Source: an uncultured Chloroflexia bacterium (GTDB lineage Bacteria; Chloroflexota; Anaerolineae; Anaerolineales; UBA4823). Taken from it: a stretch of 64,000 nt of DNA. The position numbers were made by a program, and so were the translations under genes. The notes beneath the pieces were generated by a model. It ran no database searches. It was not told the DNA's origin and worked only from the letters and a program-made list of their open reading frames with translations. This document shows, one piece after another, positions 38,566-57,288 of the stretch. The DNA lies in the NCBI GenBank assembly GCA_963726375.1, contig CAVSCE010000010.1, positions 30,351-94,350 of the forward strand, given 5' to 3'. Each line of letters starts with the position of its first letter. Positions within the stretch are counted from its first letter, which is position 1.

Positions 38566-40368
38566 TTACAAGCTGCAGTAGCGCTCGATCTGCGCTCCGA
38601 TCACCGCAAGGCTGTCGTCCCAGAATTTCCTGCTGCGGATGTCGATCCCAAACCGCAAGGCCAGGTCGGCGGCGCTGGCCTCCCCGGTCGAAGCGAGCAG
38701 GCGTTGATAGTCGCTCGTGAAGGCCGCCCCGCGCTGCTGGTAAACCGCATAAAGACCGATCCCGAACAGCAGCCCGAAAGAATACGGGAAATTATAAAAC
38801 GAGCGCGTCGCCGAGTAGTAGTGCGGCTTCCAGGCCCAGATATAGCGGTTCAAATAACGCTCGTCCAGCCCGTCGCCGTAGGCTGCGATCTGAGCTCGCT
38901 CCATCGCCTCGCACAGCTCCTCCGCCGAAAGGTCCGCCTTCTCCCGCTGGACGAACACCTCGGTCTCGAACAGGTAGCGCGAGTAGATGTCGACGATCAC
39001 CTGGCTGTGCCCGATCAGCTGGTTCTCCAGCACGGCCAGCTCCTCCCCGGGCGTGCGTGTCTGGCTGAGCATCGCCTGCCCGATGATCGTCTCGCACAGG
39101 ATCGAAGCGGTCTCGGCCAGCGTCATCGGCGTGGATTGCTGCAGGCTGGTCTTCCCAAACCGGAACATGCAGTCGTTGTGGAAGGCGTGCCCCAGCTCGT
39201 GGGCGATCGTCGAGACCTGGTCCAGGCTGCCGTCGAAGTTGCACAGCACGCGCGATTCCTTGACCCCGGCGATGTCCATGCAGAACGCCCCGCCGCGCTT
39301 GCCGTCGCGCATCTCGGCGTCGATCCAGCGCTGGTCAAAAGCCCGCTCCGCCAGGCGCCTCAGGTCTTCCGAAAAACCCCCGAACCGCTCCAGGATAAAA
39401 TCGCGCGCCTCTTCAAAGCTGTATTCGGCGGTTTTGTCGCCCGTTGGCGCCCACAGGTCCCACCACGCCAGCTTCTCTTTGCCGAGCCTGCGGGCCTTGG
39501 CGTGGAAATAGACCCGGAAGGTCGGGAGCGAATCGCGGATCGCTTCCAGCATCGCTTCCAGCGTCGGCCGGTCCAGGCGGGAGTTGTCGATCGCGCTGTG
39601 GACCGCGTCCTGCCTGCCCCTGCGCCGGTTGAGCACGTTGACCGCGCCCTTGATCCCGTTCATGCAGGCCGTCAGCGGCTCGCGCATCGAATCGAGCAGC
39701 TCGAGCTCTTTCTCGTGCCCCAGCCGTCGGACCGCTTCGTCGGGGTGCGTTTGCAGGTTGATGATCGCCGGCAGCGGCATCCGGGTCTTCTTCCCGTCAA
39801 TTTCAAGCTCCGCGCTCAGCTGCGACGTGATCGTCCCCTGCAGGTTGCTCCAGGCGGTCGAGCTGCTCTGGCTGAGCTCCGCTGCCAGGTTTTCTTCCGC
39901 CTCGCTCATCAGGTACTTCGCCTGATCGGCGGCCTCGCGCAGCGCAAAATCGTGGTCGCGCGCCGTCGGGTTTGAGGCGATCACCTCTTCCAGCGCCGGC
40001 CCCAGCGATCCGATCCAGGCTTCGAAGCGGTGGTAGAGCTGTCCAACGTGCACGTTGATCTTCTCGAACTCCGAGAGCCGCTTCCGGGCCAGCGAATTGT
40101 GCGAATCCGTGCTGACGAACGCGTAGATGAACGGCCCGATCGTTTCCTTCAGCTCAAACAGCGCGTTGAAGCGCTCGATCACCTCCCCGACCAGCCCGGC
40201 CAATTCCTTGATCGGTTTGTGAGCCTCGCTCCCCCGCACCCGCCGGTCAAACAGCGCCTCCAGCTGTTCGATCTGGCCAGAAAAATCCTCGACCGCGGCC
40301 TGGTATTCCTTAGATTCCAACCCGGGGTAAACGTTCGACAGGTCCCAACGTGCCGTAGTATTCGACAT
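38566..40368 (-). CDS. pepF: M3B oligoendopeptidase F
   Basis: WDLS.VYP, GKRGGAFC, TIAHELGHAFH, PMTLAETAS, FYNFPYSFG. Confidence 0.92.
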   Translation of the reverse strand: MSNTTARWDLSNVYPGLESKEYQAAVEDFSGQIEQLEALFDRRVRGSEAHKPIKELAGLVGEVIERFNALFELKETIGPFIYAFVSTDSHNSLARKRLSEFEKINVHVGQLYHRFEAWIGSLGPALEEVIASNPTARDHDFALREAADQAKYLMSEAEENLAAELSQSSSTAWSNLQGTITSQLSAELEIDGKKTRMPLPAIINLQTHPDEAVRRLGHEKELELLDSMREPLTACMNGIKGAVNVLNRRRGRQDAVHSAIDNSRLDRPTLEAMLEAIRDSLPTFRVYFHAKARRLGKEKLAWWDLWAPTGDKTAEYSFEEARDFILERFGGFSEDLRRLAERAFDQRWIDAEMRDGKRGGAFCMDIAGVKESRVLCNFDGSLDQVSTIAHELGHAFHNDCMFRFGKTSLQQSTPMTLAETASILCETIIGQAMLSQTRTPGEELAVLENQLIGHSQVIVDIYSRYLFETEVFVQREKADLSAEELCEAMERAQIAAYGDGLDERYLNRYIWAWKPHYYSATRSFYNFPYSFGLLFGIGLYAVYQQRGAAFTSDYQRLLASTGEASAADLALRFGIDIRSRKFWDDSLAVIGAQIERYCSL

Positions 40369-40483
40369 ATTCTCACTCCTGATGCGTATCAAAACCAAAA
40401 TCCCAGCCGATCATACAAGTATACCGAGATTCAATCCACCTGGAAACAGCCAACATCTATTTTCATAATGAGAATTTCCAGCC

Positions 40484-40630
40484 ACCAATCACCAACCGCC
40501 AGGCGCTGCTCGCTAATTGCCAATCGCTGCCCTTAAACACCTGCCCACGAATTACCAACAACTAACAAACTACCAACAACCAACTAACGCTAACTAACCA
40601 ACTAGCCAAGCTAACCGCTAACCGCCAACT
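40484..40630 (+). repeat. Heptamer-like C/A-rich tract overlapping the MFS stop codon
   Basis: accaaca actaaca ... gctaacc gctaacc gccaact; encodes LAVSG and the stop on the minus strand. Confidence 0.8.
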
Positions 40631-41807
40631 GCTGCTTTCTCTCCGGCAGCCTCCAGATCGCGAACACCGCCAGCAGCGAGAACCATGCCGCCCAGAACAT
40701 CGCCCGCTCCAACCCGATCGTGTCGCCCATAAAGCCGATTGCGACCGTCGCCAGCGGTCTCAAAGTAAAGCTTATCAGCATCCAGATCCCGTTTGCAGTC
40801 GCCCGGTTTTTTGGAAAATGCTCCTGGACGATCGCCAGGATCACCGGGTTGGTCGAGAGCGTCGTGAGCCCCAGCAGCACCAGCAGGACCAGCGTTGCGG
40901 CCCCGCTCGAGTTCAAGAACAAGATCGCCAGGCCGGCAGGGATCAGCGTCACCAGCGTCAGCACCTGTTTTCGTCCAAACCGGTCGCTCAGCGGACCGAT
41001 CGCCAGCACGCCGACGACGCCCGAAGCCATGTAGATCGAGAACGAAGCGCCTGCCACCCACAGGCTCGAGCCTTTCTGGCTCATGAACGTCGGCAGGTAG
41101 GTGCTCAGGCTCTCCATCAGCGGGTAGCGCAGCAGCGTGAAAGCCGCGATCGGCAGGAAGACCCTCGGCAGCTCCGGCAGTATCGCTCGGAAGCTCCCCG
41201 GTTTTTCCGGGCGGGCTGATAAGCCGCGCAGCTTGAAGAAAAGCATGATCGATGCCGCCCAGCCGAAGACCGAGATCCGCCAGAACCCTTCCAGCGTGTA
41301 GGTCGTCACCATGTAGACCGCCAGCAGCGGGCCGATCGCATAAGCCAGCTCGCCTGCCGCCATGAACAGGCTCATCCCCAGCCCGACCTGCCTCCCTGAA
41401 GCGCGCCCGACCAGCGCCGGCGCCGGCGCGTGGAACGCCGCCGTGCTCACCCCGGCGCAGAAAAGCAGGATCGCCAGGCTGGCGTAGGTTGGGGCCAGGC
41501 CGATCAGGCCGATGCAGGTCGCCGTGACTGCCGGCGCCAGGATCACAAAATAGCGGAAGCTGATCTTGTCCGCCATGTAGCCGATGAACGGGTTGAGCAC
41601 GCCCGGGATCTGCATGAAGGTCGTCAGCAGCCCGGCCTGGGTCAGGCTGAGCGAGAGCTTCTCGATCAGCACCGGAAGCAGCGGAGCGACGCTCGCGGTG
41701 TAGATGTCGTGTGTGACGTGCCCGACCAGCACAGGCACGACCTGCCCGGTCTGGAACCTGTCGAATTCTACCGGGCTCGCTGAAGTTGTCTCGGTGTTAA
41801 TAGTCAT
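40611..41807 (-). CDS. MFS transporter (Fsr-like)
   Basis: HVTHDIY...PLLP, AAFHAP, LSDRFGRK; about 12 TM helices. Confidence 0.88.
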   Translation of the reverse strand: MTINTETTSASPVEFDRFQTGQVVPVLVGHVTHDIYTASVAPLLPVLIEKLSLSLTQAGLLTTFMQIPGVLNPFIGYMADKISFRYFVILAPAVTATCIGLIGLAPTYASLAILLFCAGVSTAAFHAPAPALVGRASGRQVGLGMSLFMAAGELAYAIGPLLAVYMVTTYTLEGFWRISVFGWAASIMLFFKLRGLSARPEKPGSFRAILPELPRVFLPIAAFTLLRYPLMESLSTYLPTFMSQKGSSLWVAGASFSIYMASGVVGVLAIGPLSDRFGRKQVLTLVTLIPAGLAILFLNSSGAATLVLLVLLGLTTLSTNPVILAIVQEHFPKNRATANGIWMLISFTLRPLATVAIGFMGDTIGLERAMFWAAWFSLLAVFAIWRLPERKQQLAVSG

Positions 41808-41915: not shown

Positions 41916-41975
41916 AGCCAGCTGCATACCGCTAACCGCTAACAACTAACAACTATCAATCACAACCAACAACTA
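41916..41975 (+). repeat. Heptamer tract abutting the rhodanese stop codon
   Basis: gctaacc gctaaca actaaca actatca ... accaaca. Confidence 0.8.
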
Positions 41976-43731
41976 CTTCACCAGAGGTAGCTCAGCCGCT
42001 GCCCAGGCGCCAATTCCACCAGCCAGGTTGCGGACTTCCGTCCAGCCCAGCATGCGCAGGACCAGCAGGCCGATCCCGCCGCGGTGCCCGGACTGGCAGG
42101 TGAGCACGACCGGGGCCGCCTTCTCGGGCAGCAGGGTCATGTCGGCGAGCAGAGTGTTGATCGGCATATGTACGGAGCCTTCGATGTAGCCAGTGGCCCA
42201 TTCTTCGTCGGTGCGCAGGTCGACCACCAGCGGCTTGGTCTCGGAGGCCAGCTCGGTGTTCAGGTCGGCGGCTTTGACCGGTGAAGTATCCTTCCGGCAG
42301 GGCTGAGAAGAAAGCGTCCAGGTCGCGCAGGCGGGTCGGGTCCACCTCGGGTGCTGTACCGGCCGCAGGCGCCTCAGGAGCGCCAGTCTCGACGGGCAGC
42401 TCGGCCTTCTTCCAGGCGCCAATCCCGCCGGCCAGGTCCTTGACATCGGTATACCCCAGCACCTGCAGCGCTGCCATCGCCATTCCGCCGCGGTGGCCGG
42501 AAGCGCAGTAGACCACGATCGGTTGGTCGAGCGCGGGCAGCTTGTCCAGGTTCTTGAACAGTTCTTTGACCGGGATATGGACTGCGCCGGCGATGTAGCC
42601 GTCTGCTTCAAGCTCGGCAGCATCGCGGACGTCCAGCAGGAATGGCGCAGCTTCGACCATCTGTGTGTTCAGGTCAGCGGCCTTCACCGTGTAAAAGCCT
42701 TCAGGCAGCGCGGCCAGGTATTCGGACCACACCGTTTGCCAGTCCACCCAGCCGGCGACCGGCAGCTTGGCGGCTTTCCAGGCGCCCATGCCTCCGTTCA
42801 GGTTCGAGACGTTCTCCCAGCCCATCATTCTCAAGGCTGGCATCGCAAGCCCGCCCCGGTAGCCGGGAGCGCAGACCAGTCCGATCGGTTGGTCCTTGGC
42901 GGGGAGCTTGTCCAGGTTGGCCATCAGCTCGGCGAACGGGATGTTGACGCGCCTTTGATGTAGCCGTCTTTGTTCCATTCTTCAACCGTGCGCAGGTCGA
43001 TGATCGTCGGAGGAGTGCTCGAAGCGAGCGCTTCGTTGAACGCATCGGCCTTCATACCGTAGTAGCCTTCCGGCATCGCGGTCAGGCAACTTGTCGAAGG
43101 CGGTGAAGAGCGCCTGGTCCTCGACGATCGGGGTGCTGATCGCTTCGCCGGCCGGGGGCATCTCGCCGGTGACGGCTGGCTGGCTGGCCTTAAGCCATTC
43201 GCCCATCCCGCCGCTCAGGTTGCGTACATTCGTATAGCCGAGCGATGTCAGAATCGGTTCGCGATCCGCCGCGGTAGCCGGAAGCGCAGTAAACGACGAT
43301 CGGGTCGTCGAGCCCGGGCAGCTTGTCCAGGTTCTTCAGCAGCTCTTTGATCGGGACGTTCACCGCGCCGGCGATGAAACCGTCTTTCTCGATCTCGGCC
43401 GCGTCGCGTACGTCCAGCAGGAAGGGCGGCTTGTCGGCGAGCTCTTCACTGAGCGCCGGAGCGGTGACGGTCGCAAGCTTCTTGTCGGCGATCGTTGGGA
43501 AGGTCTCGGTGAAGACCGCTTCGAGGTCAAGTGGGACTTCGGTCGGAGCTGGCGGCTCGGTCGGAACCGCAGTGGGGATCGGGGCTTCGGTGGCTGCCGG
43601 AGCGGGCGCCTGCGGTCGCGACGACTGCGACGGTCGCCTGCACCTCTGCGGGGGCTGCCGGCACGCACGCGCCCAGCAGCATCGTAAGCGGCGATCATGA
43701 GTGCAAATAACGGGTACAGTTTCTTAATCAT
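41973..43731 (-). CDS. Lipoprotein with four tandem rhodanese (sulfurtransferase) domains (frameshifted)
   Basis: MIKKLYPLF...LLGAC lipobox, Pro/Ala/Thr linker, repeated LLDVR/DLRT...G.I.G, active-site loops YCASGYRG, VCAPGYRGG, YCASGHRGG, TCQSGHRGG, and NL.GG..AW. Confidence 0.85.
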
Positions 43732-43840
43732 CTTTCCTCCAATTTTTGTCTCTCTATATTTTGTTTCTCATAGTACCGGATTGAATGTTCGTTCTTTTTC
43801 CCTGGTAAATCATTGCGTCCTTCGCGTTCTTCGCGTTTCA

Positions 43841-45303
43841 TCACTGCTCTTCAGGGATCGCTTCCGGGATGGTCGGGACGACCACCGGCAGGTTCGCTTC
43901 CAGGAGCTCCGGGTTGACTTTATCCGCGGTCAGAAAAACATCCGGATTGCCGTGGCAGGCGTTGCAGCTCTCGGTTTGCGGCGTCTTCAGCTGGATGTTG
44001 TGCGGCGTGGCGTATTTCCAGGTCGGCAGCGAGTTGAAGTTCGGCTGCAGGTTCTCGCCGTAGTAGCTGAACCCGTCCGGCGTTGCCGGCACATGCCGCA
44101 CCGGGACGTATTTGTAAGGGCGGGTGTAGCTGCGGTCTGTGTTCAGCCCGATCAGGAACGTGAAATAGGTGGCTTCCGTCTCGAAATCGGGATTCCCGGT
44201 CTTGTCGCTGATCGCTACGTGGCAGCCGTCGCAGCTCGTGTAGGTGATCGAATGGCACACCTGGCAGGAGAGGTCGGCGCCGTGGACGGTGTGCATCTCG
44301 ATGTTGTCCTTGGCGAGCACGGCGCTCTGGTGGCAGGATTCGCAGGTCGGTGACTGCAGGCCCGCATAGCGGTGGTCGGCGGGTGCGAGCGCCATCTCTT
44401 CGGGCCCGGTGTGGCACTGCTGGCAGTCCGCCGGCTGCCCGTGCAGCTCGTGGTTGTCGTGGCAGTCCACGCAGTTCATCCGCCCCTCCCGGAAATGGAC
44501 ATCGCCTGGGAAGCCCTCGTTCTTGCCGAGGTATTCGTTGCCCACCCGGCTGCCATGGCAGGCGGCGAAGGAGCGTGGTCATCGGAGGCGTGCGGGTGAC
44601 GTTGTGACCGTCGAAAAGCCCCCCGCCCACGCTGACCGGCTGGCCGATGTGGCAGTCTCCGCACGATGCGTGACGAGCGCGCAGTGATTCCCGAACATCT
44701 CCTCCAGCTGCGGGTGATTTTCCGGGACGCTGCGCTGGTCCAGCACGGTCCAGTGGCCCTCCTGCGTGCTGTGCAGGCTGTGGGCGTAGACGGACGAAAC
44801 GTCATCGTGGCATTCGCTGCAGGCGTTCGGGTTCCTTCGCTCGGCTGTGCCGACGAGCCCTTCGTGGGCAGCTTCTTTGTCGGGGGACTGCTCACCCTTG
44901 TGGCAGTCCGTACAGGCGATATGGCCGTGTACGGTCTGGGGGAAGGTCTCGGCGTTCACCAGCACTTTTTCCCATGGCTCCGACGGAGCCACGCGCTCGC
45001 CGCCAACCCCTTTGGATTCAGATTTCGGTGGCTCCCTCGACCGGGTCAGCGGTCTCGATCAGCTGGTCCTTATCGGAATGGCATTTCAGGCATTCATCCG
45101 CAGGGGGGCCGGCTTCTTCGGCCGCGGCCGGAGCTTCCACCTGGGCAAGTACGGTTGCGATCACTGGCGCCAGCGGTTGCTCCAGGGAGACCGCAGCCTC
45201 GTGCCTCTGGCAGCCTGCCAGGACCAGCACTGCCGTCAGCAGCAGGCCTGATAATCGGATAATGCGCATTCGATTGGACTTTAAGTGCGGTTTGTTCGTC
45301 ATT
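43841..45303 (-). CDS. Multiheme cytochrome c lipoprotein, 10 clear plus about 2 disrupted CxxCH motifs (frameshifted)
   Basis: LAGC lipobox; CLKCH, CTDCH, CSECH, CGDCH, CVDCH, CQQCH, CESCH, CQVCH, CDGCH, CNACH; C-terminal WKYATPHNIQ. Confidence 0.85.
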
Positions 45304-45349
45304 TCACGAAGATTATATAAATAAAATGGTAGAGTAGCAAGTATCATTC

Positions 45350-45400
45350 ATAACCATTTCTTATAGGTTTTTCCTATCCGTTGCCATAAGTATAAACTAT
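45350..45400. promoter_or_regulatory. Three LysR-type boxes (ATA-N9-TAT) in the divergent promoter
   Basis: ATAACCATTTCTTAT 45350-45364, ATAGGTTTTTCCTAT 45363-45377, ATAAGTATAAACTAT 45386-45400. Confidence 0.7.
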
Positions 45401-45470
45401 GCTAAAATCTGTTTTGACAAATGGATTACCTATAGGTTCTGTGCTAAACTTCACAGAAAGGTTTTATGCC

Positions 45471-46441
45471 GTGTTAGATGTTCACCAGCTCAATGTCTTT
45501 CTTGCTTCGGCGGAAACGCTGAATTTCACCCGCGCTGCAAAACAGCTCCATATGACCCAGCCGAGCGTCAGCCAGCACATCCAGGGGCTCGAGCGCCATT
45601 TTGACCTGCCGCTCTTCATCCGCAGCGGGCGCAACCTCGAGCTTACCGATGCAGGGTTGGCGCTGCTTCCCTTTGCCCGGGAAGCCGTCTCGCTCTCGGT
45701 CCGGATCGACGAGACCATGGAATCCCTTTAGCGGGAACATTTACGGCCACCTGATCGTCGGCTGCAGCACCACGCCCGGTAAATATATCCTGCCTCATCT
45801 TCTGGTGCTTTTTCACCGCATTTTTCCTCGGGTCCGCGTCACCTGCCAGGTCTCTCCCCAGGTGGATGCGCTGCGCGGCCTGTCTGAAGGCGTAGTCCAT
45901 TTCGCCTTGTATAGCATGGAGCCTGAAGGCTTTCGGATATCGAATCGATCGCTTTTGTGCGTGATCCGATCGTCTTGATCGCGCCGCTTGACCATCCCTG
46001 GGCGTGGGAGGGCGAAATCGAGCGAGGTGAGCTTCTGAAAGCAGATTTCATCATGCGTGAGTCGGATTCCGGGACGTTCAGCGCCCTGCGCGAAGCGCTT
46101 GCCGAGCACAACATCTCCACCGGCGAGCTGAACACGCTGATCACGCTTGGAAACGCCGAAGCGATCGCCCTGGCCGTTCAGGAAGGGATCGGGGTCGGCT
46201 TTATCTCGCAGATGGTCATCGACCGGCTGTGCAGCGGGCGGGTCGCCAAAGTGCCAGCGTCCGCGGCTCTGAATATCAGCCGGAAAATCTACATCGGCCA
46301 GAACCGCCGCCGCCCGGCGACCGGCGCCCAGGCCGCCTTCTGGAGCTTCCTGACCGAATTCAACGCCGAGCAGCTCGAATTAAGCAGCTGGCGATTGAAC
46401 CGTGGATGTTCGAACCGCACTCAGTGGAAACGACCGTTTGA
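45471..46441 (+). CDS. LysR-family regulator (CysL/YeiE-like; frameshifted)
   Basis: NFTRAAKQLHMTQPSVSQHI HTH; GCSTTPGKYILP; RESDSGT; LGNAEAI..AV..GIGVGFIS. Confidence 0.9.
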
Positions 46442-46449
46442 GGCAGTAA

Positions 46450-47573
46450 ATGAAAAAACTTCCAAAGCCAAATCTGCGCACATTCAACGCCCTGCTCGCC
46501 GGAGCCCTGGTTTGGGTGCTCTGCATGGCCTTTTCGGCTCACGACCCGGCAGTGGCTGTCTGCGCCAGGCTCGCAGCCGCTCCTTCAGGACGGAGGGGAC
46601 CGCGACCCCCGCGACCCCGCTGCCCCTGCAGACGCCCCTGTTCAAACTGAGCCGCCGAAAGCTTGCGCCGAATGCCACCCCGACATCCAGGCTTCCTGGG
46701 TGGACAGCCCGCACGCCCAGGCTTACGCCGACCCGCTCTTCGTCGAGAGCTGGGATTCGCTGGGCGAGCCCGGTGAGTGCCTGGTCTGCACACTACAGGC
46801 TACGATGTCACAACCGGTGAGTTCACTGCAGATGGGTGTGGCTTGCGAAGACTGTACGTGACCGTTGAAGGTCATCCCCCCGCGGTGGTCCCGGTCCTGG
46901 CGGACACCGAATACTGCGGCACCTGCCACTCCACCACGCTGGGCGAATGGCGGCTTTCCGGTCATGCCGCTGAGGATGTCGGTTGTTCCGACTGCCACAA
47001 TCCGCACAGCCAGCAAGCTCTTTTTGAAAATCCAGACGAGCTGTGCATCAACTGCCATAAAGATGATCTTGGCGAGCACAAGGACGACGTCCACATCCAG
47101 AAGGGCATCACCTGCATCGAATGCCACGCCCTGGTCATGCCTCCGGCAGACCCACCCCAGGACGGGTTGGTCCCGACCGGTCACACCTTCACGATCACCC
47201 CGGATACCTGCGTGGCGTGCCGTCAGATGCCCTCCACAGTGGGACGCCGCTCCCGGGCTATGAAGCCGGCGCAAGCGGAGTTGCCGAGATTCTCCGGGTC
47301 ACCTCCACCCTCCCGACGCTTGTCGCCGAATACACCGGTGGGACCGTTGAGTCGGGCGTCTCGGCCGCACAGACCATCCAGGCGCTCGAAGCAGCCCTTG
47401 CCAGTGCCCGCCTTTCCACGCTCTTCCAGGGCGGAATGATCGGGCTGGTGCTTGGTGGTTCGACCGCCTTCTTTATCGGCCGCAATCAGCGCCGGGCTTT
47501 TGAAGAAGTCGCCGAAGCCGAAGATGAAGACGAGCCGGATTGGGAAAAGGAAGAAGGGTCCGAAGATGAGTGA
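46450..47573 (+). CDS. Membrane-anchored multiheme cytochrome c, about 8 hemes (frameshifted)
   Basis: Signal peptide; CAECH, CGTCH, CSDCH, CINCH, CIECH plus disrupted CLVC, CEDC, CVAC; C-terminal TM helix GGMIGLVLGGSTAFFIG. Confidence 0.8.
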
Positions 47574-48432
47574 GCCAGGTCCTTCCCGCGAACCCGAACA
47601 GCCTGCTGAGCAAAAACCGGACTCAAAAAAGAAACCGATCCTCTCCCGGAGTGATATCCTGAAGATCGGCGGGCTGACTGCCGGTGCTGCCCTGGTCGCC
47701 CAGGTTGTGATCACCGGCCGCTCTCCGCCGATGCCGTCCAGGGTATCGGCTGGGATACGCATAACGTCGAAGGTCACAGCGCTGGTGTACCCTCTCGAAA
47801 CCAGTGGCACATGGCCATCGACCTGTCGTGCTGGATCGGCTGCAACTACTGTGTGAATACCTGCCAGGCGGTCAACGATGTCCCGGAAGATGCCATGCGC
47901 TGGAATATCGTGATCCCCGAACAGACTGAGCTGGGGCTGGAGTTCTATATGAACCGGCCTTGCCAGCACTGCCAGGAAGCCCCTTGCACCCGGGTTTGCC
48001 CGGTGGGCGCAACCTGGGTCCGCTCCGACGGGGTCGTCGTGATGGACTACGAGCGCTGCATCGGCTGCCGCTACTGCCAGGTAGCCTGCCCCTATGATGC
48101 CGCCGCTTCAACTGGAAGGTCCAGAGGAGGCGATAATCCGTACGTCCCGGAGTGGGGTTCGCCCGAGATCGAGCGCCGGCCACGCGGCGTTGTTGAAAAA
48201 TGTACATTCTGCGTCCAGCGCATCGACCGACGGCCTCTCCGAGGGCTTGATCCCCGGTGTCGACCCGGCTGCCACCCCGGCCTGCGTGGACGCCTGTCCG
48301 ATCGGGGCACGCATCTTCGGCGATATAAACGACCCGGAAAGCCCGGTCTCGAAATTTCTGGCCGAAACAGCGACCTTCCGGCTGCGCGAAGAGCTGGGGC
48401 ACCCAGCCCAAAGTCCATTACGTGAGCCCTGA
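47566..48432 (+). CDS. NrfC/PsrB/DsrO-like 4x[4Fe-4S] electron-transfer subunit (frameshifted)
   Basis: Tat-like SRSDILK leader; IGCNYCVNTC, CQHCQEAPCTRVCP, CIGCRYCQVACP, KCTFC, PACVDACP, FGDINDPES. Confidence 0.88.
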
Positions 48433-49669
48433 TGAAGGGAGCAGCTGATTTGACCGCCGTTACGCTTGAAAAATCGCCTTCTCGGCCCTCCTCCAGCCGG
48501 GCATTCCGGATCTGGGTGTCAGTTCTGGTAGCATTGCTTGTCCTCGGCCTTGCCGCCGCCTCGCAGGTCTGCTGGCGGTTTGCAAGTCACCGACCTGAGC
48601 GACCGGGTCCCGTGGGGGCTCTGGATCACGCTCGACCTCTCGATGATCGCCCTCGGAGCTGGCGCCTTCACGTTCTCCGCCGCCGTCTACATTTTCCGGA
48701 TCAAAGCTTCCGCTGCGCGTAGCCCGGCTGTGTTCATCGGCTTTCTGGGCTATTCCGGGGCGATGCTCGCCCTCGCGATGGATATCGGCCGCCCGGACCG
48801 CTTCTGGCATCCGATCGTCTACTGGAACGTACATTCCGTGCTTTGGGAGATGACCTGGTGCGTGATCCTTTATTCCATCGTCCTGGTGATGGAAGCGCTG
48901 GCGGTCACCGGCGATTTGGACATTGGCGAGCGCTGGCCGTGGTTCGAAGCTGGGCGATCTCCTGCAGACCCTGACGCCGATCCTGGCTGTGATCGGGATG
49001 GGGCTCTCGCTGCTCCACGAGTCCTCGCTTGGCGCGACGTACAGCGTGCTCAGCGGGCGGGCGATCTGGTTCAAGCTCTTCTCTCCCGGTGATGTTCATC
49101 ATCTCCGCCGTCGCTGGCGGGATGGCGCTCACTGTGCTCGCCTCGCTGATCGTCGGGCAAATTTGCCACCACAGTACCTGCCCTCGAAGGTCTGCGCGGG
49201 GCTCACCCGCACGATCGGCTTCATCACGCTGGGATACCACTATATCTAGGTCTGGGACTGGGCGGCGACATCCTATTATAGCAACTCCCCCGCCACCGCC
49301 GGCATCCTCTCCCGCCTCAACGCGACTACGCCGTACACCACAACCTTCTGGGGTGTCGAGATCCTGCTCAGCGGGCTCGTCCCGGCGGTGATCCTGCTGC
49401 TGCCAAACCTGTGCAGGCGCCGCGGCCTGGTCATGCTCGCACTGGGATTGATTGTTGCCGGGGTTGTCATCAACCGCTGGAACATCACCCTCTCCGGATT
49501 GGTCGCCCCGCCGGAGTGGTCGCCAGGTGTGCTCGGGAACGTGATCACGGTCTCCTACTTCCCCTCGCCGACCGAGATCGCGGTAGCCCTTGGCATCTGG
49601 GCTTACGCCTTGCTCGGCTTCACCCTCGGCGTGAAGTACCTGGAGATTTACCCGAAAGCGAAGGGATAA
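48432..49669 (+). CDS. NrfD/PsrC/HybB-like quinone-interacting membrane subunit (frameshifted)
   Basis: VPWGLWI, DIGRPDRFWH, SVLWE, LHESSLG, GVVINRWNI, YFPSPTEI. Confidence 0.88.
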
Positions 49670-49886: not shown

Positions 49887-49962
49887 GCTAACAGCCAACA
49901 GCTAAATGCTAAATGCTAAAACAGCTAAATGCTAACCACCATCAATCAACAACCAATAACTA
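49887..49962 (+). repeat. Heptamer tract abutting the VOC gene stop codon
   Basis: gctaaca gccaaca gctaaat gctaaat ... gctaacc. Confidence 0.8.
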
Positions 49963-50342
49963 TACTTGATAAATCTGGATCCAATTCCCGCAGGTGTCGG
50001 CAAACATCGCCAGCGTCGTCTCGCCCATTTTCGTCGGCTCGCTCCTGAACTCGACGCCCAGCCCCTTCAACCGCTCGTACTCAGCCTGGATATCCTCGAC
50101 CTCGAACGCCGTCAGCGGGATGCCCTGCTCGAAGAGCGCCTTTTTAAACGCCTGCGCGCCGGGTTTTCGCTCGGCTCCAGCACAAGCTGCGTCCCTTCCG
50201 GCTCCTCAGGCGAAACCACGGTCAGCCAGCGGAACTGGCCTAAAGGGATATCGATCTTCTTCACAAAGCCCAGCACCCCGGTATAAAACTCGAGCGCCTG
50301 CTCCTGGTCTTCCACGAAAACGCTGTTCAGCTTAATCTTCAT
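49960..50342 (-). CDS. VOC/glyoxalase family protein (one frameshift)
   Basis: SVFVEDQEQALEFYTGVLGF, RWLTVVSPE, corrected end DTCGNWIQIYQV. Confidence 0.85.
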
Positions 50343-50649
50343 CCAAATTTCTCCATATTCCATGCGGCTCAATAAAAACTCAAACTCCTTGAGTTCGTCT
50401 CTCAAGTTCATCGTCGGTATTATCAGCGCAATAAATAGGATTTGTCAAGTAGTTTATCAGAATAATCGTGCTGACTCCGTGCCAGAATTCTCGCCGCCAA
50501 TCCTTCGGCAGGGATAAAGGAGTAACCATCTCAATCCGTCTTAATGAGATCCAGATCGAAAACCATTTAACCTAAGCGTGGACTGTTGATTAAAAGTGGA
50601 TTAAAATAATCAAAACCAAAACGACTATTCATTCATAACAGGAGGGATC

Positions 50650-53112
50650 ATGGTTCGCAAATTCACAGCTGTACTTTCGCTTTTCTCGGCATTGCCCTGG
50701 TCATCGGTTTCATCTTAGCCTTTTCCAACTCAGCCGCTTCTGCAAAGGAAACTGAGCCGCCGGCTGCTCCCAGCTGACATTTCAGGTGAGTCCGGGCGCT
50801 CAGACCGACTTCGGTCAGCAGCGATCCCCGGAAAACGTCTTGATTCACGCGGTCGGAGGCGAATCCGCAGGTTCTTGATCCTGCTATTGCTTATGACACA
50901 GCCAGCGGGGAAGTGATCATGCAGATTTACGAGCCTCTCGTCGAGATGAACCGGGAGAAAACGGATGAATTTATCCCGCTCCTCGCCACCGGCTGGACGA
51001 TTTCCGGGGACGCGAAAACCTACACATTCACCATTCGCACTGGGGCGAAATTCCACGATGGGGGCCCTCTGACCGCTTCTGACGTCGCCTATTCCTTCCA
51101 GCGCGGCATCCTCCAGGGCGGACAAATTCACCCCAATGGTTTTTCACTGAACCGCTCCTCGGGATGGGAATAATGGATGTATGCAATCTGCTCGATCCGA
51201 GCGTTTGCAATAACCGAGATTCATTGCAGACTTATCAAACAAGCGCATACTTCCCAGGTGGCTGGTGTCTGCTCGACGGTGAAAAACGCAGTCGTCGCGA
51301 ACGATAACGCCGGCACGGTCACATTCAATCTGGCCAACGCCTGGGCGCCTTTCATGAACGACATGGCGGGCACCTCGTGGGTCGGTCATCGATCGCGAAT
51401 GGGCGATTTAGCAGGGCGCCTGGGATGGGGATTGCAGCACATGGCATAACTATTATGCCGTTTCGAATTCCACCTCGCCTCTCCGCAATATCACGAACGG
51501 CACGGGGCCATTCAAGCTCGACCATTGGACTTCGGGGGTCGAGCTGGTGCTGGCTCGGCACGACTCCTATTGGAACACCGTCCCGCTCTGGCTTGGCGGA
51601 CCATTCGGCCTAGCCAGGTTTGAAACGGTCAGGCGAACGGTAGTAGCCAACAGCGCAACACACGCTCAGATGCTTCTGAATGGTGACGTTGATCTCATCC
51701 ACAGCGTGCCAACCTACGCGGGTGATTTTGACGATGCGACGCTGTTTCATTACACGCAGCCGGATGGGATCACCCCGACCCTGGTGAACCCGAGGTGGCG
51801 TTTTAAAAAAGTACACAGGCGGCCTGTCGACTTCGGCGACAGATGCGTTCTTCACCTACAATATCGTGACCGGTGGGCCCCGGAACTATGTAGGCAGCGG
51901 TACCTGGGATGGTCACGGCATCCCGACGGATTTCTTTACCGATATCAACGTCCGAAAGGGGTTCAATTACGCTTTTGATTGGGCTTCATACAAAAACGCC
52001 ATCTACGGCGGCTCTGGTGTCCAGCGCACAGGCCCGATCATCAAGCCTCTCCCGGGCTACGATGAAAACCAACCGGTCTATACCTATAACCCGACCCTCG
52101 CAAAGCATGATCTTGACCAGGCCTGGGGCGGATTGGTCGCGACGAACGGTTTTTCACTCACTGTGGCTTATAACAATCGGATAATTTGGCTCGCCAGAAG
52201 ATCGCCGAGATCCTGAAAGAGAATATCGAAGCCATGGATCCAAAGTACCATGTCAAGATTATGGGTTTATCCTATACGGATTTCAGCGCCGACATGGAAA
52301 TAACAGCCGCATTCCAATCTCGATAAACGGATGGATACAGGATTTCCCTCACCCGCACAACTGGGTTGTCCCATATCTGGACGGGACCTACGCTTCCCGT
52401 CAAAACATGCCGTCGACGATGCGGAGCATGTACCATACGATGATCTATAATTGCGTCGCGATGATCGGCGACGCCGCCAATGACTGCTATGAAGGTATTC
52501 AGGACCCAGACCTACTTGGAAACCCCCGATATATTTCTTGTTCAGGCGAACGCAGCGGAGTTATGTGTCCGCCAATATTCAGAGTTTTTACCTAAACCCG
52601 GGCCGGTTCGGGGGTGCGCTACTACGATCTGTACAAAAACCCGCTCCCGAAACTGTGACCGTCCAGCCCGAGGTCGAGCAGACGATGGAATGCACCCCGT
52701 CCGTTGGCGTCGCCGCGACCGCATCAATCCCGGCGGGCTCTGTTCCCGAAGAGATCCAGATCGTGGCGATCCCCGAAGCGAAGGCTTATTCTGAGCCAGC
52801 TGAATTCTTGTTAGGCGGGATGTCAACTTCGACCTGCAGGCCTTCCTCCCGGATGGAACACTGATCCCTGACATGACCTTCTCAAGCCCCATCACGATCA
52901 CGATCGCCTATGGGACGGGTGCGTTCACACCCGGGCAGGAAACCGAGCTGGTTTTGCTCTATAGGGACGGCGCTAATTGGGTCGACGCGGCTTGCGGAGC
53001 ATATGACCGCGACCTGGTGAACCACACACTCCAGGTGCCCATCATTCACCTGAGCACCTTCGGCCTGGCCGAGCCGAGCGGCCTGATCTACCTGCCCGCC
53101 ATCCGGCACTGA
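50650..53112 (+). CDS. Family 5 (peptide) ABC solute-binding protein fused to a C-terminal beta domain with HLSTF and YLP motifs (many frameshifts)
   Basis: LDPAIAYDTASGEVIMQIYEPLV, YTFTIR.G.KFHDG..LTASDV.YSF.R, NGTGPFKL, VRKGFNYAFDW; ends HLSTFGLAEPSGLIYLPAIRH. Confidence 0.75.
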
Positions 53113-53307
53113 TCATAGAAAAAACCTGGCTGGCAGCCCAATTTGGACTGCTAGACTTTCGATTATTTAAGGTACTCACCGATTAAAATGGTTCTGGAAT
53201 TACCTTTGCTGATCTGCGTCCATCTGAAGGAAAAAGCTCTTTTTGGACACAGATAAAATGAAATTTGTCGGGAGGAACGATAAGTCCTCACAAATTGATT
53301 CTTCATA

Positions 53308-54245
53308 ATGTCTGCATTATTAATCCTCGCCTCCTGCACCCCCGGCCCGACCCCCACCCCCCGGGTCGTCGTCGTCACCCAGGAGGTCGTCGTCACCCAT
53401 CAGGTCAGACACCGACTCCCGCAGTTCTGGTCGTCACCCCCACCTCGCCGCCCACCGATCTCCCTGCACTCCCGACCTCGACCCCCTCAGCCCGCTCCCA
53501 CGATTGGACCGACTACGGCGGGATCTGCCTCCGCCCGGATAACCTCCCGCCCGGCACGGCGGTCAACCCGGACGTAGCCGCCCTAGAGTCGGCCGCCTCC
53601 AGCTCCTCCAGGCCCTCTGGCGGGTGATTGAGCTGAGCGGATCGGCCGCCGAATTGACGCCCAAATTTTCCACCGCCGAACGCCTCGTCCAGGGCGTCCT
53701 CTCGGATGTCGCGCTGCGCGGGCCTTTTCTCCCGGTCGGCAAAACCCCTCCGCGCAGCGATCCCTGGAGCTTCTACCTGGGCGATGCGGCGGAGCTCTGG
53801 CGAGAGGCGCATCCAGGCAAAAATTCAATGGGATTGCGCTGGATGTGATCTGTTTCGAGCTGTATGACCCGTTTGAATTTGAAGACCAGAAGAAGCTGCC
53901 GGGCAACCCGGATTACATCCACATGGTCGGCGGCGTGACGCATGCGATCTTTGCGATGGAGCAGATTTTCGACGCTCCCCGGCTGGTGGTCAGGCTCTAC
54001 AAGGATCCCTACGGGAAGAAGAAAGGGTACCCGGACCTGCTGGGTTTTACCCCGGAGAACACACCGCGCAGAACGCCCTGGCTGCGAACCAGCACCTGGG
54101 CGCGGTCGTCGCCTCGCTGAACTACGTGATGTGGGGCAATTTTGACGGCGACGGCGTCTTCGAGTTCGGCTACGGCCCGAAGAACTCCGCCCCGCTGCCT
54201 GTTTCCGAATTTGAAACGCTAAAGATTTTCCTGCCTCCTCCCTGA
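53308..54245 (+). CDS. Hypothetical lipoprotein with a Pro/Thr-rich linker (frameshifted)
   Basis: LILASC lipobox, PTPTP..VVVTQEVVVT linker, continued in ORFs 53624.. and 53845.. Confidence 0.55.
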
Positions 54246-54339
54246 TCCTAAAACCTTCAGCCGGTCTTTGACAGGTCTTAGCTTTCTGCTAAAAATCGGA
54301 TGGTATATCGTGTTTTAGGAAATATTAACTGCAAGCCAA

Positions 54340-54478
54340 GAATTACTGATTGCTATTTGCCAAATGCCAAATGCTAACAGCAACCACAACAGCCAAACAA
54401 CAACCAACAGCCAACAAACAACAAAACGCTAACTGCCAAATGCTAACCACCAACAACCAACACTAAGCTAACTACCGC
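54340..54478 (+). repeat. Heptamer-like C/A-rich tract abutting the squalene synthase stop codon
   Basis: gccaaat gccaaat gctaaca ... gctaact gccaaat gctaacc accaaca. Confidence 0.8.
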
Positions 54479-54480
54479 CC

Positions 54481-55329
54481 TCATTCCCCCAATCCCAACA
54501 GCCGGATCACTTCGCCCCGCTCCAGCTTCTCCCTGCCCTGCTCGATCGCATCCAGCGTCGCGTGCGCCAGCAGCAGCGGGATCCGGCAGAAATCAAAAGC
54601 CGGCCCGGGAGGCAGCGAGCTCAGGTACTCGTCCGCCTGAGAAAGGTTGCGCCGGGCGTAAGCCTGCATCTCCTTCGCCTCCCAGCCCGTCGGGAAAAAA
54701 TCGACCCCTCTACGGAAGTCTTCCATCCGGTTGCGCAGGATATTGACCGCCTGCAGCCCACGCCCAAACCCCACCGCCAGCGTCCGGTCGGACTGCGTCC
54801 CGTCGAACCAGGCCCACAGGTCGGATAGCACAAGCCCGACCGCGCCGGCGACCCCCATCGTATAACGGTCGAGGTCGGCCTCGCTCGTCAGCCGGAAGTT
54901 TTCGCTTGCCCAGTCGGCCATCCGGTCGGCCATCGTCGCGGTCGCGTCCCAGATCCGGCTTGCAATCGAGCGCGGCGCGATCGCCAGCCAGTCCGGCAGC
55001 CTCAGGGTGACTTCCGCCAATACCGGCCGGAATTCTGCCGTGCTGAGAAGCAGGTCCTCGACCCGCAGCCGTTCGCTCGACGACTGGATGACCCGGCTGA
55101 TATTCCGCAGCAGCCGCGCCTTGATCTCACCGGACAGGTCGGCATGGTCCTCGATCTCGTCGATCGCCCGCAGGCAGAGATACGCCGAGCCCACCGCCTG
55201 CTGCAGGCCGCCGGGCAGCCGGCTGATTGGGATATAAAACGTCCGGCTGGTTTCCTCCAGCATTTGCAGCGCTTCTCGCTGCAGTCCAGGGTCTTCTGTT
55301 CCGGAACCGATAGTAGCGTATGCAGTCAT
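54481..55329 (-). CDS. Squalene synthase (single-enzyme, cyanobacterial Sqs/YisP-like)
   Basis: LEETSRTFYIPISRLP, AYLCLRAIDEIED, DLDRYTMGVAGAVG, GLQAVNILRN. Confidence 0.8.
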   Translation of the reverse strand: MTAYATIGSGTEDPGLQREALQMLEETSRTFYIPISRLPGGLQQAVGSAYLCLRAIDEIEDHADLSGEIKARLLRNISRVIQSSSERLRVEDLLLSTAEFRPVLAEVTLRLPDWLAIAPRSIASRIWDATATMADRMADWASENFRLTSEADLDRYTMGVAGAVGLVLSDLWAWFDGTQSDRTLAVGFGRGLQAVNILRNRMEDFRRGVDFFPTGWEAKEMQAYARRNLSQADEYLSSLPPGPAFDFCRIPLLLAHATLDAIEQGREKLERGEVIRLLGLGE

Positions 55330-55358
55330 ATTTTCTTTGCCAGAGATGAACGCAGAAA

Positions 55359-57288
55359 CTATTGATTACTTATAAACCTCGCCAGCGCGAGCAGCGGGAA
55401 ATAAATCCGGTAAAGATCGTAGCGCAGGTAAAAAACGCGCGGGAAACCCGTCCCGGTGTATTCCGGCTCGATCCAGTTCCCGTCCGCGGTCTGTGTGTCC
55501 AGCAGGTAGCGCACCCCGGCCTGGACCCTCGGATCAGCCGCCTCACCCGCCGCGATCAGCCCCTGCAGCACCCAGGCAGTCTGCGAGGCGGTGCTATTCC
55601 CCTGCCCGCGCAGGCCAGGATCGATATACGTCATGCAGCTCTCGCCCCAGCCGCCGTCCGGATTTTGGCGGCCGAGCAGCCACTCCACCGCCCTGCGGAT
55701 ATACGCCTGGCCCATATCCTCCCCGGCTGCCCTCAGACCGCTCAGCGCCAGACCGGTGCCGTACAGATAGTTGACCCCCCAGCGTCCGTACCATGCCCCG
55801 TCGGCTTCCTGGGTCTGCTTCAAATAAGCCACCCCTCGCCGGCGGCTCTCCTCGCCCTGGTTGATCTCCGCCAGGAACTCCAGCGCGTGGGCGCTCACGT
55901 CGGCGCAGGTCGGGTCCAGCGGGGACATGAAATCCGCGAACGGTGTGTGGCTCAGAGCCTTGTGATCGTTGTCCCTGTCGAACGCGCCCCAGCCGCCGTC
56001 TTTGGACTGCATCCGCACCACCCAGCTGAGCGCCCGTTTCACCGCCGCCGACCGCTTCAGCACCTCCTCTCCGCTCAGATCGACCCGCAGCAAGGCGCGC
56101 GGCACCAGCGCGCTGTCGTCCAGGTCAGGGTACCAGTCGTTGACGAACTCGAACGACCACCCGCCCGGCTCGCCTCCCGGATCCTTCACCTTCCAATCGC
56201 CTTTCAGCCGGATTTCCTTCTCGAGCAGCCAGCCAGCCGCCCGGACCAGCTGCTTCTGCCCGGCAGGGATCCCCGATTCGCGCAGCGCCAGCGCTGCCCA
56301 GGCGGTATCCCAGACCGGCGATGTGGCCGGCATGAACCGCAGCGTCTGCTCGTCCTCGATCAGGAAATCTTCGAAACCCTCGATCCCTCTTGCAAGTACC
56401 GGGTGCTCGAGCGGGTAATCCAGGCTCCTGAGCGCAATCAGCGAATAGATCCATGGCAGCAGGATCCCTCCCCAGCTTCCGTCGGATCTCCTGGTGCTGG
56501 ACGATCCAGGCCTCCACCATCCGCAGCGCCTTTTCACGCCTTGGAGCCGTCTCGAGCCTGTCCCAACGCTTAAAACCGGTCCACGATCTGAAAGACGCCC
56601 CGCCAGGAGAACGGATTGCGGACCGCAGGAAGTTTGTAGCGCTTCGGACCGGACGGCTCCAGGTACAGCTCCTCCACCCGCGCCCTTCCGGTACCTTGCA
56701 GACCGGCTTCCGCGTCAGCACCACCGTAAGCGCCATCAGCGTCTCGCGTGACCAGCTCGCAAATTCGTAGATGTTGAAGTAGAAGTCGATCGGCAGGAAG
56801 ATGATCTCCGGTGGGGCGGATGGCGCCCCGCGGTAATCATACTGGCCGAAAACCGCCAGCCAGATCTTCGTGAACACCTTGGACTTCGTGATCCCGCCCT
56901 GGGAGCGGATGAACTCGCACGCCCGCTCCATGCGCCTCTCGTCCCTCGGGAGCCCGCCCAGCTTCAGGCCGAAATAGCACTGGATGCTTACATCCAGGTC
57001 GCCCGGACCGCCGAAATAAGTCGGCCACGAGCCGTCCGGATTTTGCTTGCTCAGCACATAGGCGATCGCCTTGCGCTGCCGCTCGGGCTCTACCCAGCCA
57101 AACAGGTAGTACATCAGCGGGATGTACCCCGCCGTGACGCTCGCGTCTGCCTCCAGCTCGCCCAGCCAGAAGCCCTCCGGGTTCTGGCGCTCCAGCAGGG
57201 CCGCCTGCGCCCGGCGGATCGCCTGTGCAACTCGTTCGTATTGGCTCATGTCGTCCGCTTCGAGCTGTGCCAAATTCATGGGGAGCAT
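55359..57288 (-). CDS. shc: Squalene-hopene cyclase (frameshifted near 56480-56670)
   Basis: QW repeats (QNPEGFW, QNPDGSW, QSKDGGW, QEADGAW, QTADGNW), SPVWDTA, YPDLDDSA (DxDD), GRWGVNYLYGT, TGTGFP..FYLRY. Confidence 0.93.

Follow-up and report, generated by a model that had tools for sequence, protein, structure and literature searches.

We analyzed a gene cluster at positions 41973-49669 of a 64,000-nucleotide stretch (the window) of contig CAVSCE010000010.1 (C10), from the genome of an uncultured Chloroflexia bacterium (GCA_963726375.1, here G000), and compared its genes with related loci (L-numbers) and proteins (P-numbers) from other genomes. The cluster encodes a four-domain rhodanese lipoprotein and a multiheme lipoprotein cytochrome on one strand and, divergently, a LysR-family regulator, an octaheme cytochrome and an NrfC/NrfD-like pair. 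On balance, we consider it somewhat probable that this is a conserved Anaerolineae system for molybdenum-independent chalcogen reduction on the outer face of the cell membrane, and that the window holds a poorly assembled copy of it. The catalytic centre that seemed to be missing turns out, as judged from the orthologous sequences, to be a predicted selenocysteine in the 12-heme cytochrome.

The left-hand cytochrome was searched for in 61 related genomes, and strong orthologs were found in eight, G000 included. In the loci of six of the seven relatives, an in-frame TGA stands at one fixed place (...E-S-K-G-V-G-TGA-G-G-x-V-A-P-L-E-P-W-E-K). A scan of the genome collection gave at least 550 stretches with relatives. 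The top 80 loci, all from Chloroflexota metagenome-assembled genomes (MAGs) and mostly from Anaerolineae, were analyzed, and 78 of them carry the in-frame TGA while the remaining two have TGG. Upstream of the TGA lie a signal peptide, a lipobox and the first CxxCH heme motif, and downstream lie 11 CxxCH motifs with no export signal. Because the downstream part lacks such a signal, the parts before and after the TGA should form one polypeptide. Read through in this way, the ortholog at L013 (9300-10757) has 486 amino acids and 12 CxxCH motifs, with U95 between heme motifs 1 and 2 (G-V-G-U-G-G).

A hairpin (GGCUCC-GUU-GGAGCC, with a stem of 6-8 bp) starts 9-11 nt after the UGA; the selenocysteine insertion sequence (SECIS) of E. 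coli fdhF follows an 11-nt spacing rule. This hairpin is 100% paired in 75 distinct sequences, and its synonymous sites are invariant even though the proteins are 55-100% identical. One pair varies (GC in 70, CG in 3 and GU in 2), and every such change also alters the amino acids encoded. One TGG variant (L097) has a weaker stem and a TGA-less homolog (L015) has none, and Rfam returned no family for the hairpin region. The decoding machinery is widespread as well: SelB scored over its cut-off in 46 of the 61 relatives and tRNA-Sec in 53, and both are present in all seven relatives that hold an ortholog. G000 has tRNA-Sec, an intact selA, and a selD with an in-frame TGA of its own. Furthermore, cysteine occupies the selenocysteine site (C-G-G or C-S-G) in 7 of the 37 distant cluster representatives that span it, and in close forms that lack selenocysteine the residue there is Trp, Leu, Ser, Ala or Ile. 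When an even sample of the phylum was searched with the profile of the Cys type (A4), matches came from 10 of 401 genomes, at selenocysteine-type loci only. The four usual lines of evidence (a conserved TGA, a hairpin behind it, the selenocysteine machinery, and homologs with cysteine) are therefore all present, which marks the 12-heme cytochrome of the orthologs as a predicted selenoprotein. In an alignment of 34 sequences (A3), the only invariant cysteines are those of the lipobox and the CxxCH motifs; ten invariant and one nearly invariant histidines lie outside the motifs, and with two invariant methionines they could fill all distal heme positions. One subclade of selenocysteine-type cytochromes (L086, L087 and L089) lacks heme motif 8, which brings its heme count to 11.

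The conserved TGA might instead be an ordinary stop codon, with a small monoheme lipoprotein before it and a separate 11-heme protein after it, the two being coupled through a GAGG-like sequence and a GTG. The TGAGG(N)GG at the site does resemble a ribosome-binding site, 8-9 nt before a GTG, and gene callers begin an open reading frame (ORF) there, most database entries being about 385 aa long. We find this hardly credible, since the 11-heme part has no export signal although export is needed for heme attachment, and the TGA-less homologs are single polypeptides. The cysteine found at the site in distant homologs, the compensatory pair and invariant synonymous sites of the hairpin, and the presence of the selenocysteine machinery likewise speak against a stop.

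The selenocysteine does not vary on its own. A rhodanese gene follows the cytochrome gene in 78 of the 80 loci, with four active-site loops in 69 of these, and the two loci that lack it are exactly the two with TGG. No rhodanese was found downstream of the cytochrome in the TGA-less L015, L100 and L101, for which 2.4-5.4 kb of sequence could be searched. Despite 91% identity to L035, which is of the selenocysteine type, L057 has lost four features: the TGA, the rhodanese, the LysR gene and a conserved arginine. Of ten selenocysteine-type loci that are more distant, eight have the rhodanese next to the cytochrome, two of them on its upstream side. In a tree built from the part of the cytochrome that follows the site, the selenocysteine state changes at least three to four times, and the rhodanese changes alike each time. 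The arginine in question, Arg269, lies just before heme motif 7; a contrast of alignment columns found it in 78 of 78 selenocysteine-type loci and in none of eight aligned forms without selenocysteine. The rhodanese itself is well preserved: the ortholog P0002 contains four rhodanese stretches (PF00581) with a total of 244 bits, and the lipobox cysteine together with C143, C282, C404 and C541 is invariant in 25 orthologs. By this comparison, selenocysteine, Arg269 and the rhodanese appear as one evolutionary unit.

Two observations concern the architecture of these loci. At L014 (G017, positions 7804-10860), cytochrome and rhodanese run together as a 1018-aa frame with no stop between them; as a Met and a lipobox of its own are still present in the rhodanese, we rejected a designed fusion in favour of the probable loss of a stop codon. 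At L100 (G187) and L101 (G142), which have Leu or Trp at the selenocysteine site, the cytochrome gene comes directly after genes for an NrfC-like protein, an NrfD-like protein and a 13-heme cytochrome; this arrangement is the plain-wire version of the module.

The third component is a putative quinol module. Of 57 loci with enough flanking sequence, 33 have the octaheme-NrfC-NrfD trio beside LysR, 3 more have it in divergent orientation and 2 have it in part. A paralogous module of multiheme cytochrome and NrfD occurs elsewhere in five of five genomes that lack the adjacent arm, and homologs without selenocysteine still adjoin an NrfC/NrfD/multiheme module. The NrfD ortholog matches PF03916 with 103.7 bits, pieces of the window gene match this family as well, and in the NrfC-like protein of L013 four Fe-S cluster motifs can be read directly, with matches to Fer4 families. 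Among NCBIfam models, the NrfD-like protein is best matched by QrcD (260 bits against a cut-off of 570) and HmcC, both below cut-off; the NrfC-like protein by DsrO (201 against 200, at the threshold) and QrcC (166 against 400); the DsrP model reached 57 bits against 350. None of the Qrc or Dsr partner genes (QrcB; DsrM, K and J) was found among the conserved neighbours. For the LysR ortholog the best model is NF040786, a selenium metabolism-associated LysR, with 214 bits, below its cut-off of 250.

Molybdenum enzymes are not part of this arrangement. A gene with a molybdopterin domain lies within 10 kb on either side in only 1 of the 80 loci; none was found in the window, and the roughly ten PF00384 loci of G000 are all on other contigs. 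The statements of the initial annotation that the cluster contains neither a CxxCK motif nor a catalytic molybdenum gene hold for the window. A conserved catalytic candidate, the selenocysteine codon, can be seen in the orthologs only. As for the six-gene set whose conservation the initial annotation had proposed to check, the cytochrome-rhodanese pair is conserved (78 of 80) and the full arm only partly so (33 plus 3 divergent of 57). The sulfur or selenium respiration module that it proposed is thus partly borne out: gene-set conservation, the absent molybdenum partner and the co-variation of selenocysteine with rhodanese favour it, whereas the function, substrate and direction are putative and the window copy is frameshifted as assembled and lacks the TGA.

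All parts of the cluster bear export or lipoprotein signals. In the reductive scheme that we favour, the NrfD-like subunit would oxidise menaquinol and hand the electrons to the NrfC-like protein with its four Fe-S clusters; the membrane-anchored octaheme cytochrome would relay them from there to the lipoprotein cytochrome with 12 hemes. The four-domain rhodanese lipoprotein would bind sulfane sulfur in the form of a cysteine persulfide, with polysulfide or elemental sulfur (S0) as the source, or perhaps thiosulfate or selenium. Attack by the selenolate on this persulfide would give an Se-S intermediate, which the hemes would reduce to sulfide, and expression of the operons would be turned on by the LysR protein. 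We infer a quinol-fed, molybdenum-free reductase of polysulfide or S0 (or of selenite or thiosulfate), analogous and not detectably homologous to the MccSep/ExtH proteins. A more specific proposal, for which we claim only a tentative standing and which may well prove wrong, is that an obligatory four-domain rhodanese provides the persulfide cysteines with which the selenocysteine works in trans. The heme chain would then reduce an intermolecular Se-S intermediate as its substrate, and no cysteine within the enzyme, which would make this a new type of molybdenum-free reductase for polysulfide, S0 or thiosulfate.

The PsrABC complex and Sud protein of Wolinella reportedly combine a catalytic subunit containing Mo-bisPGD with a periplasmic sulfur transferase that feeds Psr. 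The cluster shares with them a membrane anchor of the NrfD type, an Fe-S subunit with four clusters and a rhodanese-like sulfur carrier in the periplasm that would feed the catalytic subunit, and differs in that this subunit would be a heme/selenocysteine protein and not a Mo-bisPGD one. PsrABC is listed in PMC8076601, which also describes the NrfD-type cytochrome complexes Qrc, Nhc/Hmc, MccACD and NrfABCD; in these, as here, an NrfD-like protein is combined with an NrfC-like 4x[4Fe-4S] protein and a multiheme cytochrome on the outer face. Unlike Qrc, Dsr, NrfABCD and MccACD, however, the cluster lacks a QrcB-like subunit, DsrMKJ, MccA and, as CxxCK is absent, NrfA, and its terminal cytochrome, in contrast to those of the NrfD-type cytochrome complexes, is a predicted selenoprotein. 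NrfA-type nitrite reductase was considered and rejected as an identity for the cytochromes, as CxxCK is lacking and the similarity found in the PDB is limited to weak matches of the NrfA type.

The closest analogy is with Geobacter. It has been reported that the pentaheme selenoprotein MccSep (ExtKL, GSU2937-2936) is a polysulfide reductase that is essential for S0 respiration and also reduces selenite, with an active site composed of a selenocysteine, a His/Cys-ligated heme and an anion-binding arginine (PMC13510729; Mihara et al., Sci Adv 2026). The same article gives a preference for polysulfide over selenite, with a five-fold lower K0.5 and a seven-fold higher Vmax/K0.5. Besides MccSep, its cluster has genes for ExtH, which is a rhodanese lipoprotein, for cytochromes with 12 and 10 hemes and for a Rieske/cytochrome b module (PMC6148476, PMC5877670). 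Like MccSep of G. sulfurreducens, the Anaerolineae protein is a multiheme c-type cytochrome with one predicted selenocysteine, encoded by UGA with a downstream stem-loop, in a glycine-containing loop and with an arginine implicated nearby. As in the extHIJKLMNOPQS cluster, a rhodanese lipoprotein is encoded alongside, together with more multiheme cytochromes, among which ExtM of Geobacter has 12 hemes, and a module for quinol oxidation in the membrane, which is putative here; all of them are extracytoplasmic. Some of these counterparts are built differently. The rhodanese here has four PspE/GlpE-like domains and, with 22 bits against a cut-off of 200 for NF040901, is not an ortholog of ExtH; the quinol module is of the NrfC/NrfD type, where Geobacter has one of the Rieske/cytochrome b type; and no porin is encoded. 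The host belongs to the Chloroflexota, whereas the main text of the MccSep article names mainly Desulfobacterota and Nitrospirota and contains the string 'Chloroflex' nowhere (PMC13510729). A 2026 review (PMC13188914) gives three families of cytochrome selenoproteins, namely MccSep/ExtKL, GSU2204 (NF041027) and the Otr-family octaheme cytochromes (TIGR04315). The latter two resemble the present family in being c-type cytochromes that contain selenocysteine, but neither NF041027 nor TIGR04315 matched the cytochrome ortholog P0001 at E <= 0.01, and in the PDB one fragment showed weak similarity to 1sp3 (E 0.0018). A search of the literature by title and abstract returned nothing relevant on selenoproteins or rhodanese in combination with Anaerolineae and cytochromes. 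Taken together, these comparisons suggest that the cluster repeats the logic of ExtH, MccSep and a quinol oxidase using different proteins.

Several observations weigh against a quinol-fed reductase of this kind. The substrate and the direction of electron flow are assigned by analogy only, and the analogy with MccSep has gaps: the MccSep model NF040886 gave no match to P0001 at E <= 0.01, so that homology is not detectable; the hemes number 12 here and 5 in MccSep; the selenocysteine lies near the N-terminus in G-x-G-U-G-G and not in the D-G-U-P loop of a C-terminal Ig domain; and the family has no conserved cysteine outside the CxxCH motifs and lipobox that could serve as a heme ligand. By heme number, selenocysteine position, motif and models, the cytochrome family is therefore not a member of the MccSep family. 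Since the conserved histidines and methionines could occupy the distal heme positions, an open or unusual catalytic heme is not evident. The test of independent losses gave p 0.25, with too few pairs for significance, and 19 of the 57 loci have no adjacent quinol module. In G000, SelB was found only in pieces, and the window copy keeps its rhodanese with no TGA, the only such case seen. Finally, the NrfC/NrfD-like proteins are nearest to QrcC/QrcD and DsrO, and Qrc reduces quinone, so that flow in the reverse direction is plausible.

This last point leads to other functions for the same proteins. In the oxidative direction, sulfur of sulfide, polysulfide or thiosulfate held by the rhodanese would be oxidised at the selenocysteine cytochrome, and electrons would enter the quinone pool through NrfC/NrfD. 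The models nearest to the membrane module (QrcD/QrcC and HmcC) are known as carriers of electrons from periplasmic cytochromes to quinone, and the discussion in PMC13510729 raises the possibility that MccSep runs in reverse the mechanism by which TsdA and SoxAX oxidise thiosulfate. We nevertheless judge this improbable: all of these family matches except DsrO, at its threshold, are below cut-off, the sole characterised selenocysteine multiheme enzyme works reductively, and no Sox or Dsr genes are conserved across the 80 loci. A slightly stronger, though still unlikely, candidate is a selenium system, in which selenite or tellurite would be reduced outside the cell for respiration, detoxification or acquisition and the rhodanese would carry a perselenide. 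NCBIfam names ExtH a 'selenite/tellurite reduction operon rhodanese-like protein', and the best match of the LysR protein is selenium-associated; both models, however, score below their cut-offs (22 bits against 200 and 214 against 250). A further argument against a selenium system is the scarcity of selenium in most habitats of a family that occurs in about a quarter of the sampled genera. MccSep, for its part, also reduces selenite and deletion of extI impairs the reduction of selenite and tellurite (PMC13510729, PMC6148476), and a selenium-substituted rhodanese is cited in the reference list of PMC5877670; MccSep favours polysulfide, however (PMC13510729).

Least likely among these functions, in our view, is a generic wire for extracellular electron transfer to metals, humics or electrodes, with selenocysteine and rhodanese as accessories. 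Multiheme cytochromes of Anaerolineae have been read as extracellular electron-transfer proteins (bioRxiv 10.1101/2021.08.23.457424), and the homologs that have neither selenocysteine nor rhodanese still adjoin NrfC/NrfD and another multiheme cytochrome, so the cytochrome scaffold can act as a plain wire. The strict co-variation of selenocysteine, Arg269 and a four-Cys rhodanese would not be expected of a simple wire.

The window copy departs from its orthologs at the very site that defines the family. At the equivalent of G-V-G-TGA-G-G-x-V-A-P-L-E-P-W it reads GVGGERVAPSEPW, with no TGA, and the change, visible in the sequence across the site (GVGGERVAPSEPWEK), is not a single-base error. The site equivalent and hairpin were placed at 44974-45004 (minus strand) by alignment to orthologs, with a 3-nt gap at 45002. 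The hairpin stem (GUGGCUCC/GGAGCCAU) is kept, with a loop of GUC versus GUU in all 78 others, and the selenocysteine-linked arginine is retained (DVHFREGRMNCVDCH). Two scans of metagenome records (JGI) found no instance of the window hairpin variant, and a protein search with the N-terminal fragment from the window found no relative closer than 75%. Either the TGA was lost very recently or its absence is an artefact of the local assembly.

None of the six window genes has an intact ORF. Each requires several frame switches, and the six together contain about 30 frame-shifting indels and one nonsense codon, which the initial annotation had missed together with the loss of the TGA, while identifying the domains correctly. 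Aligned with the intact ortholog L013 (MAFFT, 70% nucleotide identity), the window shows 47 gap events in 7.85 kb, 34 of which are not multiples of 3; most are 1 nt long, some fall in intergenic spacers, insertions and deletions are about equal in number, and the sites are not in long homopolymers. The single true in-frame nonsense codon, in the ortholog frame, is a TAG at 49247 in nrfD. Long ORFs are normal across the G000 genome (about 130 stop-free frames of at least 700 aa), and the window between 44 and 56 kb is almost without them. Three public wetland-metagenome runs contain small shares of the stretch; their habitat was not used as evidence, the word shares being small. Short, low-depth contigs from these runs are 97-100% identical to the window and differ from it by a 1-nt indel at five positions, of which 42280, 44577, 46788 and 47223 are predicted frameshift sites and the fifth is 45462. 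At 49247 a contig has A in place of T, with which the nonsense codon disappears. Every listed metagenome piece that spans a predicted site has the frame-restoring version; the listed contigs show no visible coverage of position 45002. Because near-identical contigs restore the frame at the sites they span, most or all of the breaks are most likely assembly consensus errors, or at least intact alleles exist.

It is also conceivable, though we think it unlikely, that the cluster in G000 is a decaying remnant with genuine frameshifts, nonsense codon and TGA loss, in an organism that is losing SelB as well. The roughly 30 frame-disrupting indels are clustered in 41.9-54 kb with intact neighbours and lie outside long homopolymers, the TGA loss is more complex than a 1-nt error and comes with a change in an otherwise invariant hairpin loop base, the hairpin variant was absent from the JGI metagenome records scanned, and SelB is in four pieces. 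Against decay stand the metagenome contigs, which restore the frame at all spanned sites and remove the nonsense codon, and the ratio of one nonsense codon to about 30 indels, which suits long-read consensus error better than neutral decay. Moreover, all CxxCH motifs, the rhodanese cysteines and Arg269 are kept, selD of G000 still requires selenocysteine decoding, and other genes of the window are split as well. These are HpaB (23098-24466), a cyclase/TPR protein (28116-30213) and a squalene-hopene cyclase (55359-57288), each present as two overlapping ORFs, which points to sporadic assembly frameshifts beyond the cluster too.

Some further irregularities were seen in the same genome. Dense frameshifts continue on the right-hand side of nrfD through 49900-54400, where only short ORFs occur and the fragments resemble, by eye, a family-5 ABC substrate-binding protein. 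SelB lies on contig C9 (C9:637459-639375) as four adjacent pieces in different frames (31.5, 185.7, 39 and 33.9 bits), either through further assembly error or because the loss of selenocysteine decoding has begun. The GC content of G000 contigs ranges over 0.498-0.593 (0.583 for C10) and swings between 0.49 and 0.66 within the window, and the bin may be heterogeneous (contamination estimate 3.6%).

The predicted selenoprotein family is widespread. With a threshold of E <= 1e-60, orthologs were found in 68 of the 301 class-level genomes with a completeness of at least 80%, in 52 of the 221 high-quality genomes and in 44 of 175 genera, almost all with one internal TGA; relatives were found in at least 550 species genomes, and a profile search at E <= 1e-30 gave 194 clusters (50% identity). 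As gene callers cut the gene at the TGA, databases hold a 'hypothetical protein' of about 385 aa. The family is matched by no NCBIfam model for cytochrome selenoproteins and, on this evidence, is a widespread and so far unannotated selenoprotein family of the Anaerolineae. In some entries (P0019, P0023, P0029 and others), one source names the truncated cytochrome ORF 'thiosulfate/3-mercaptopyruvate sulfurtransferase' although it has no rhodanese domain, a name probably carried over from the neighbouring gene.

Anaerolineae rank among the most abundant bacteria of sediments, wetlands, digesters and activated sludge. Models mostly treat them as fermenters, and their multiheme cytochromes are usually read as metal-reducing wires. 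Recognising the cytochrome as a selenoenzyme linked with a rhodanese and a quinol module offers a concrete, testable route for cryptic sulfur or selenium respiration, and would extend heme-selenocysteine polysulfide reduction, a discovery of 2026, to a second, dissimilar protein family in a different phylum. If the proposed function is true, sulfur respiration is within reach of about a quarter of the Anaerolineae genera sampled, among them abundant filaments of wetlands, sediments and activated sludge that are read as fermenters, and selenium would be a controlling micronutrient for this respiration. The comparison also supplies targets for mutation (U95, R269 and the four rhodanese cysteines) and flags a systematic annotation error that can be corrected.

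Within the window, the genes were located by ORF listing and by three-frame translation of 41.9-50 kb, and Pfam searches of in-frame pieces identified rhodanese, multiheme cytochrome, LysR helix-turn-helix (HTH) and substrate, 4Fe-4S dicluster and NrfD domains. ORFs, translation and Pfam agree with the gene order, strands, coordinates and domain content first proposed. On the minus strand, the tetra-rhodanese lipoprotein gene occupies 41973-43731 (PF00581 on pieces; at least six frame switches are needed to read it through), and its four C-x2-G-x-R active-site loops, at 43288, 42873, 42507 and 42098, are all readable. The lipoprotein multiheme cytochrome gene cytL, the ortholog of the selenocysteine cytochrome family, lies at 43841-45269 on the same strand with about four frameshifts; 10 of the 12 CxxCH motifs of the orthologs can be read in one frame, and the C-terminal 243 residues are 81% identical to L013. 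Divergent from cytL, the LysR-family gene at 45399-46400 (plus strand, as are all that follow; HTH_1 and LysR_substrate by Pfam) has two frameshifts, a likely start near 45474 and an end that is approximate because the frame is lost. The octaheme cytochrome gene cytR, encoding a C-terminal membrane helix, covers 46450-47573; five of the eight CxxCH motifs of the orthologs are readable, and three are cut by 1-nt indels, two of which (46788 and 47223) are corrected in the metagenome contigs. It is followed by the gene for the NrfC-like periplasmic 4x[4Fe-4S] protein (about 47524-48432; Fer4 families by Pfam; about five frameshifts), with a Tat-like N-terminus that reads SRSDILK in the window and SRRDALK in the L061 ortholog ORF, and by that for the NrfD-family integral membrane subunit, predicted to interact with quinone (48432-49669; PF03916; about five frameshifts in addition to the TAG). 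The genes beside the cluster, pepF (38566-40398) and an MFS transporter gene (40611-41807), are intact.

The surroundings of the cytochrome-rhodanese pair vary among relatives. In loci without the arm (L045, L065-L069, L072, L076-L078, L084-L091 and similar), the pair adjoins CcmA, CcmB and CcmC in 13-17 cases, and a membrane 4Fe-4S/CCG protein or a 627-aa monoheme cytochrome in 12. L016, from a genome of the same genus as G000 (G003), likewise has no LysR-octaheme-NrfCD arm; its order of MFS gene, rhodanese-cytochrome pair, squalene synthase and squalene-hopene cyclase is that of the window at 40611-41807 and 54481-57288. With 81% identity, the window cytochrome resembles its counterpart in G023, from another genus, more closely than this same-genus copy (68%), and the locus may have been replaced.

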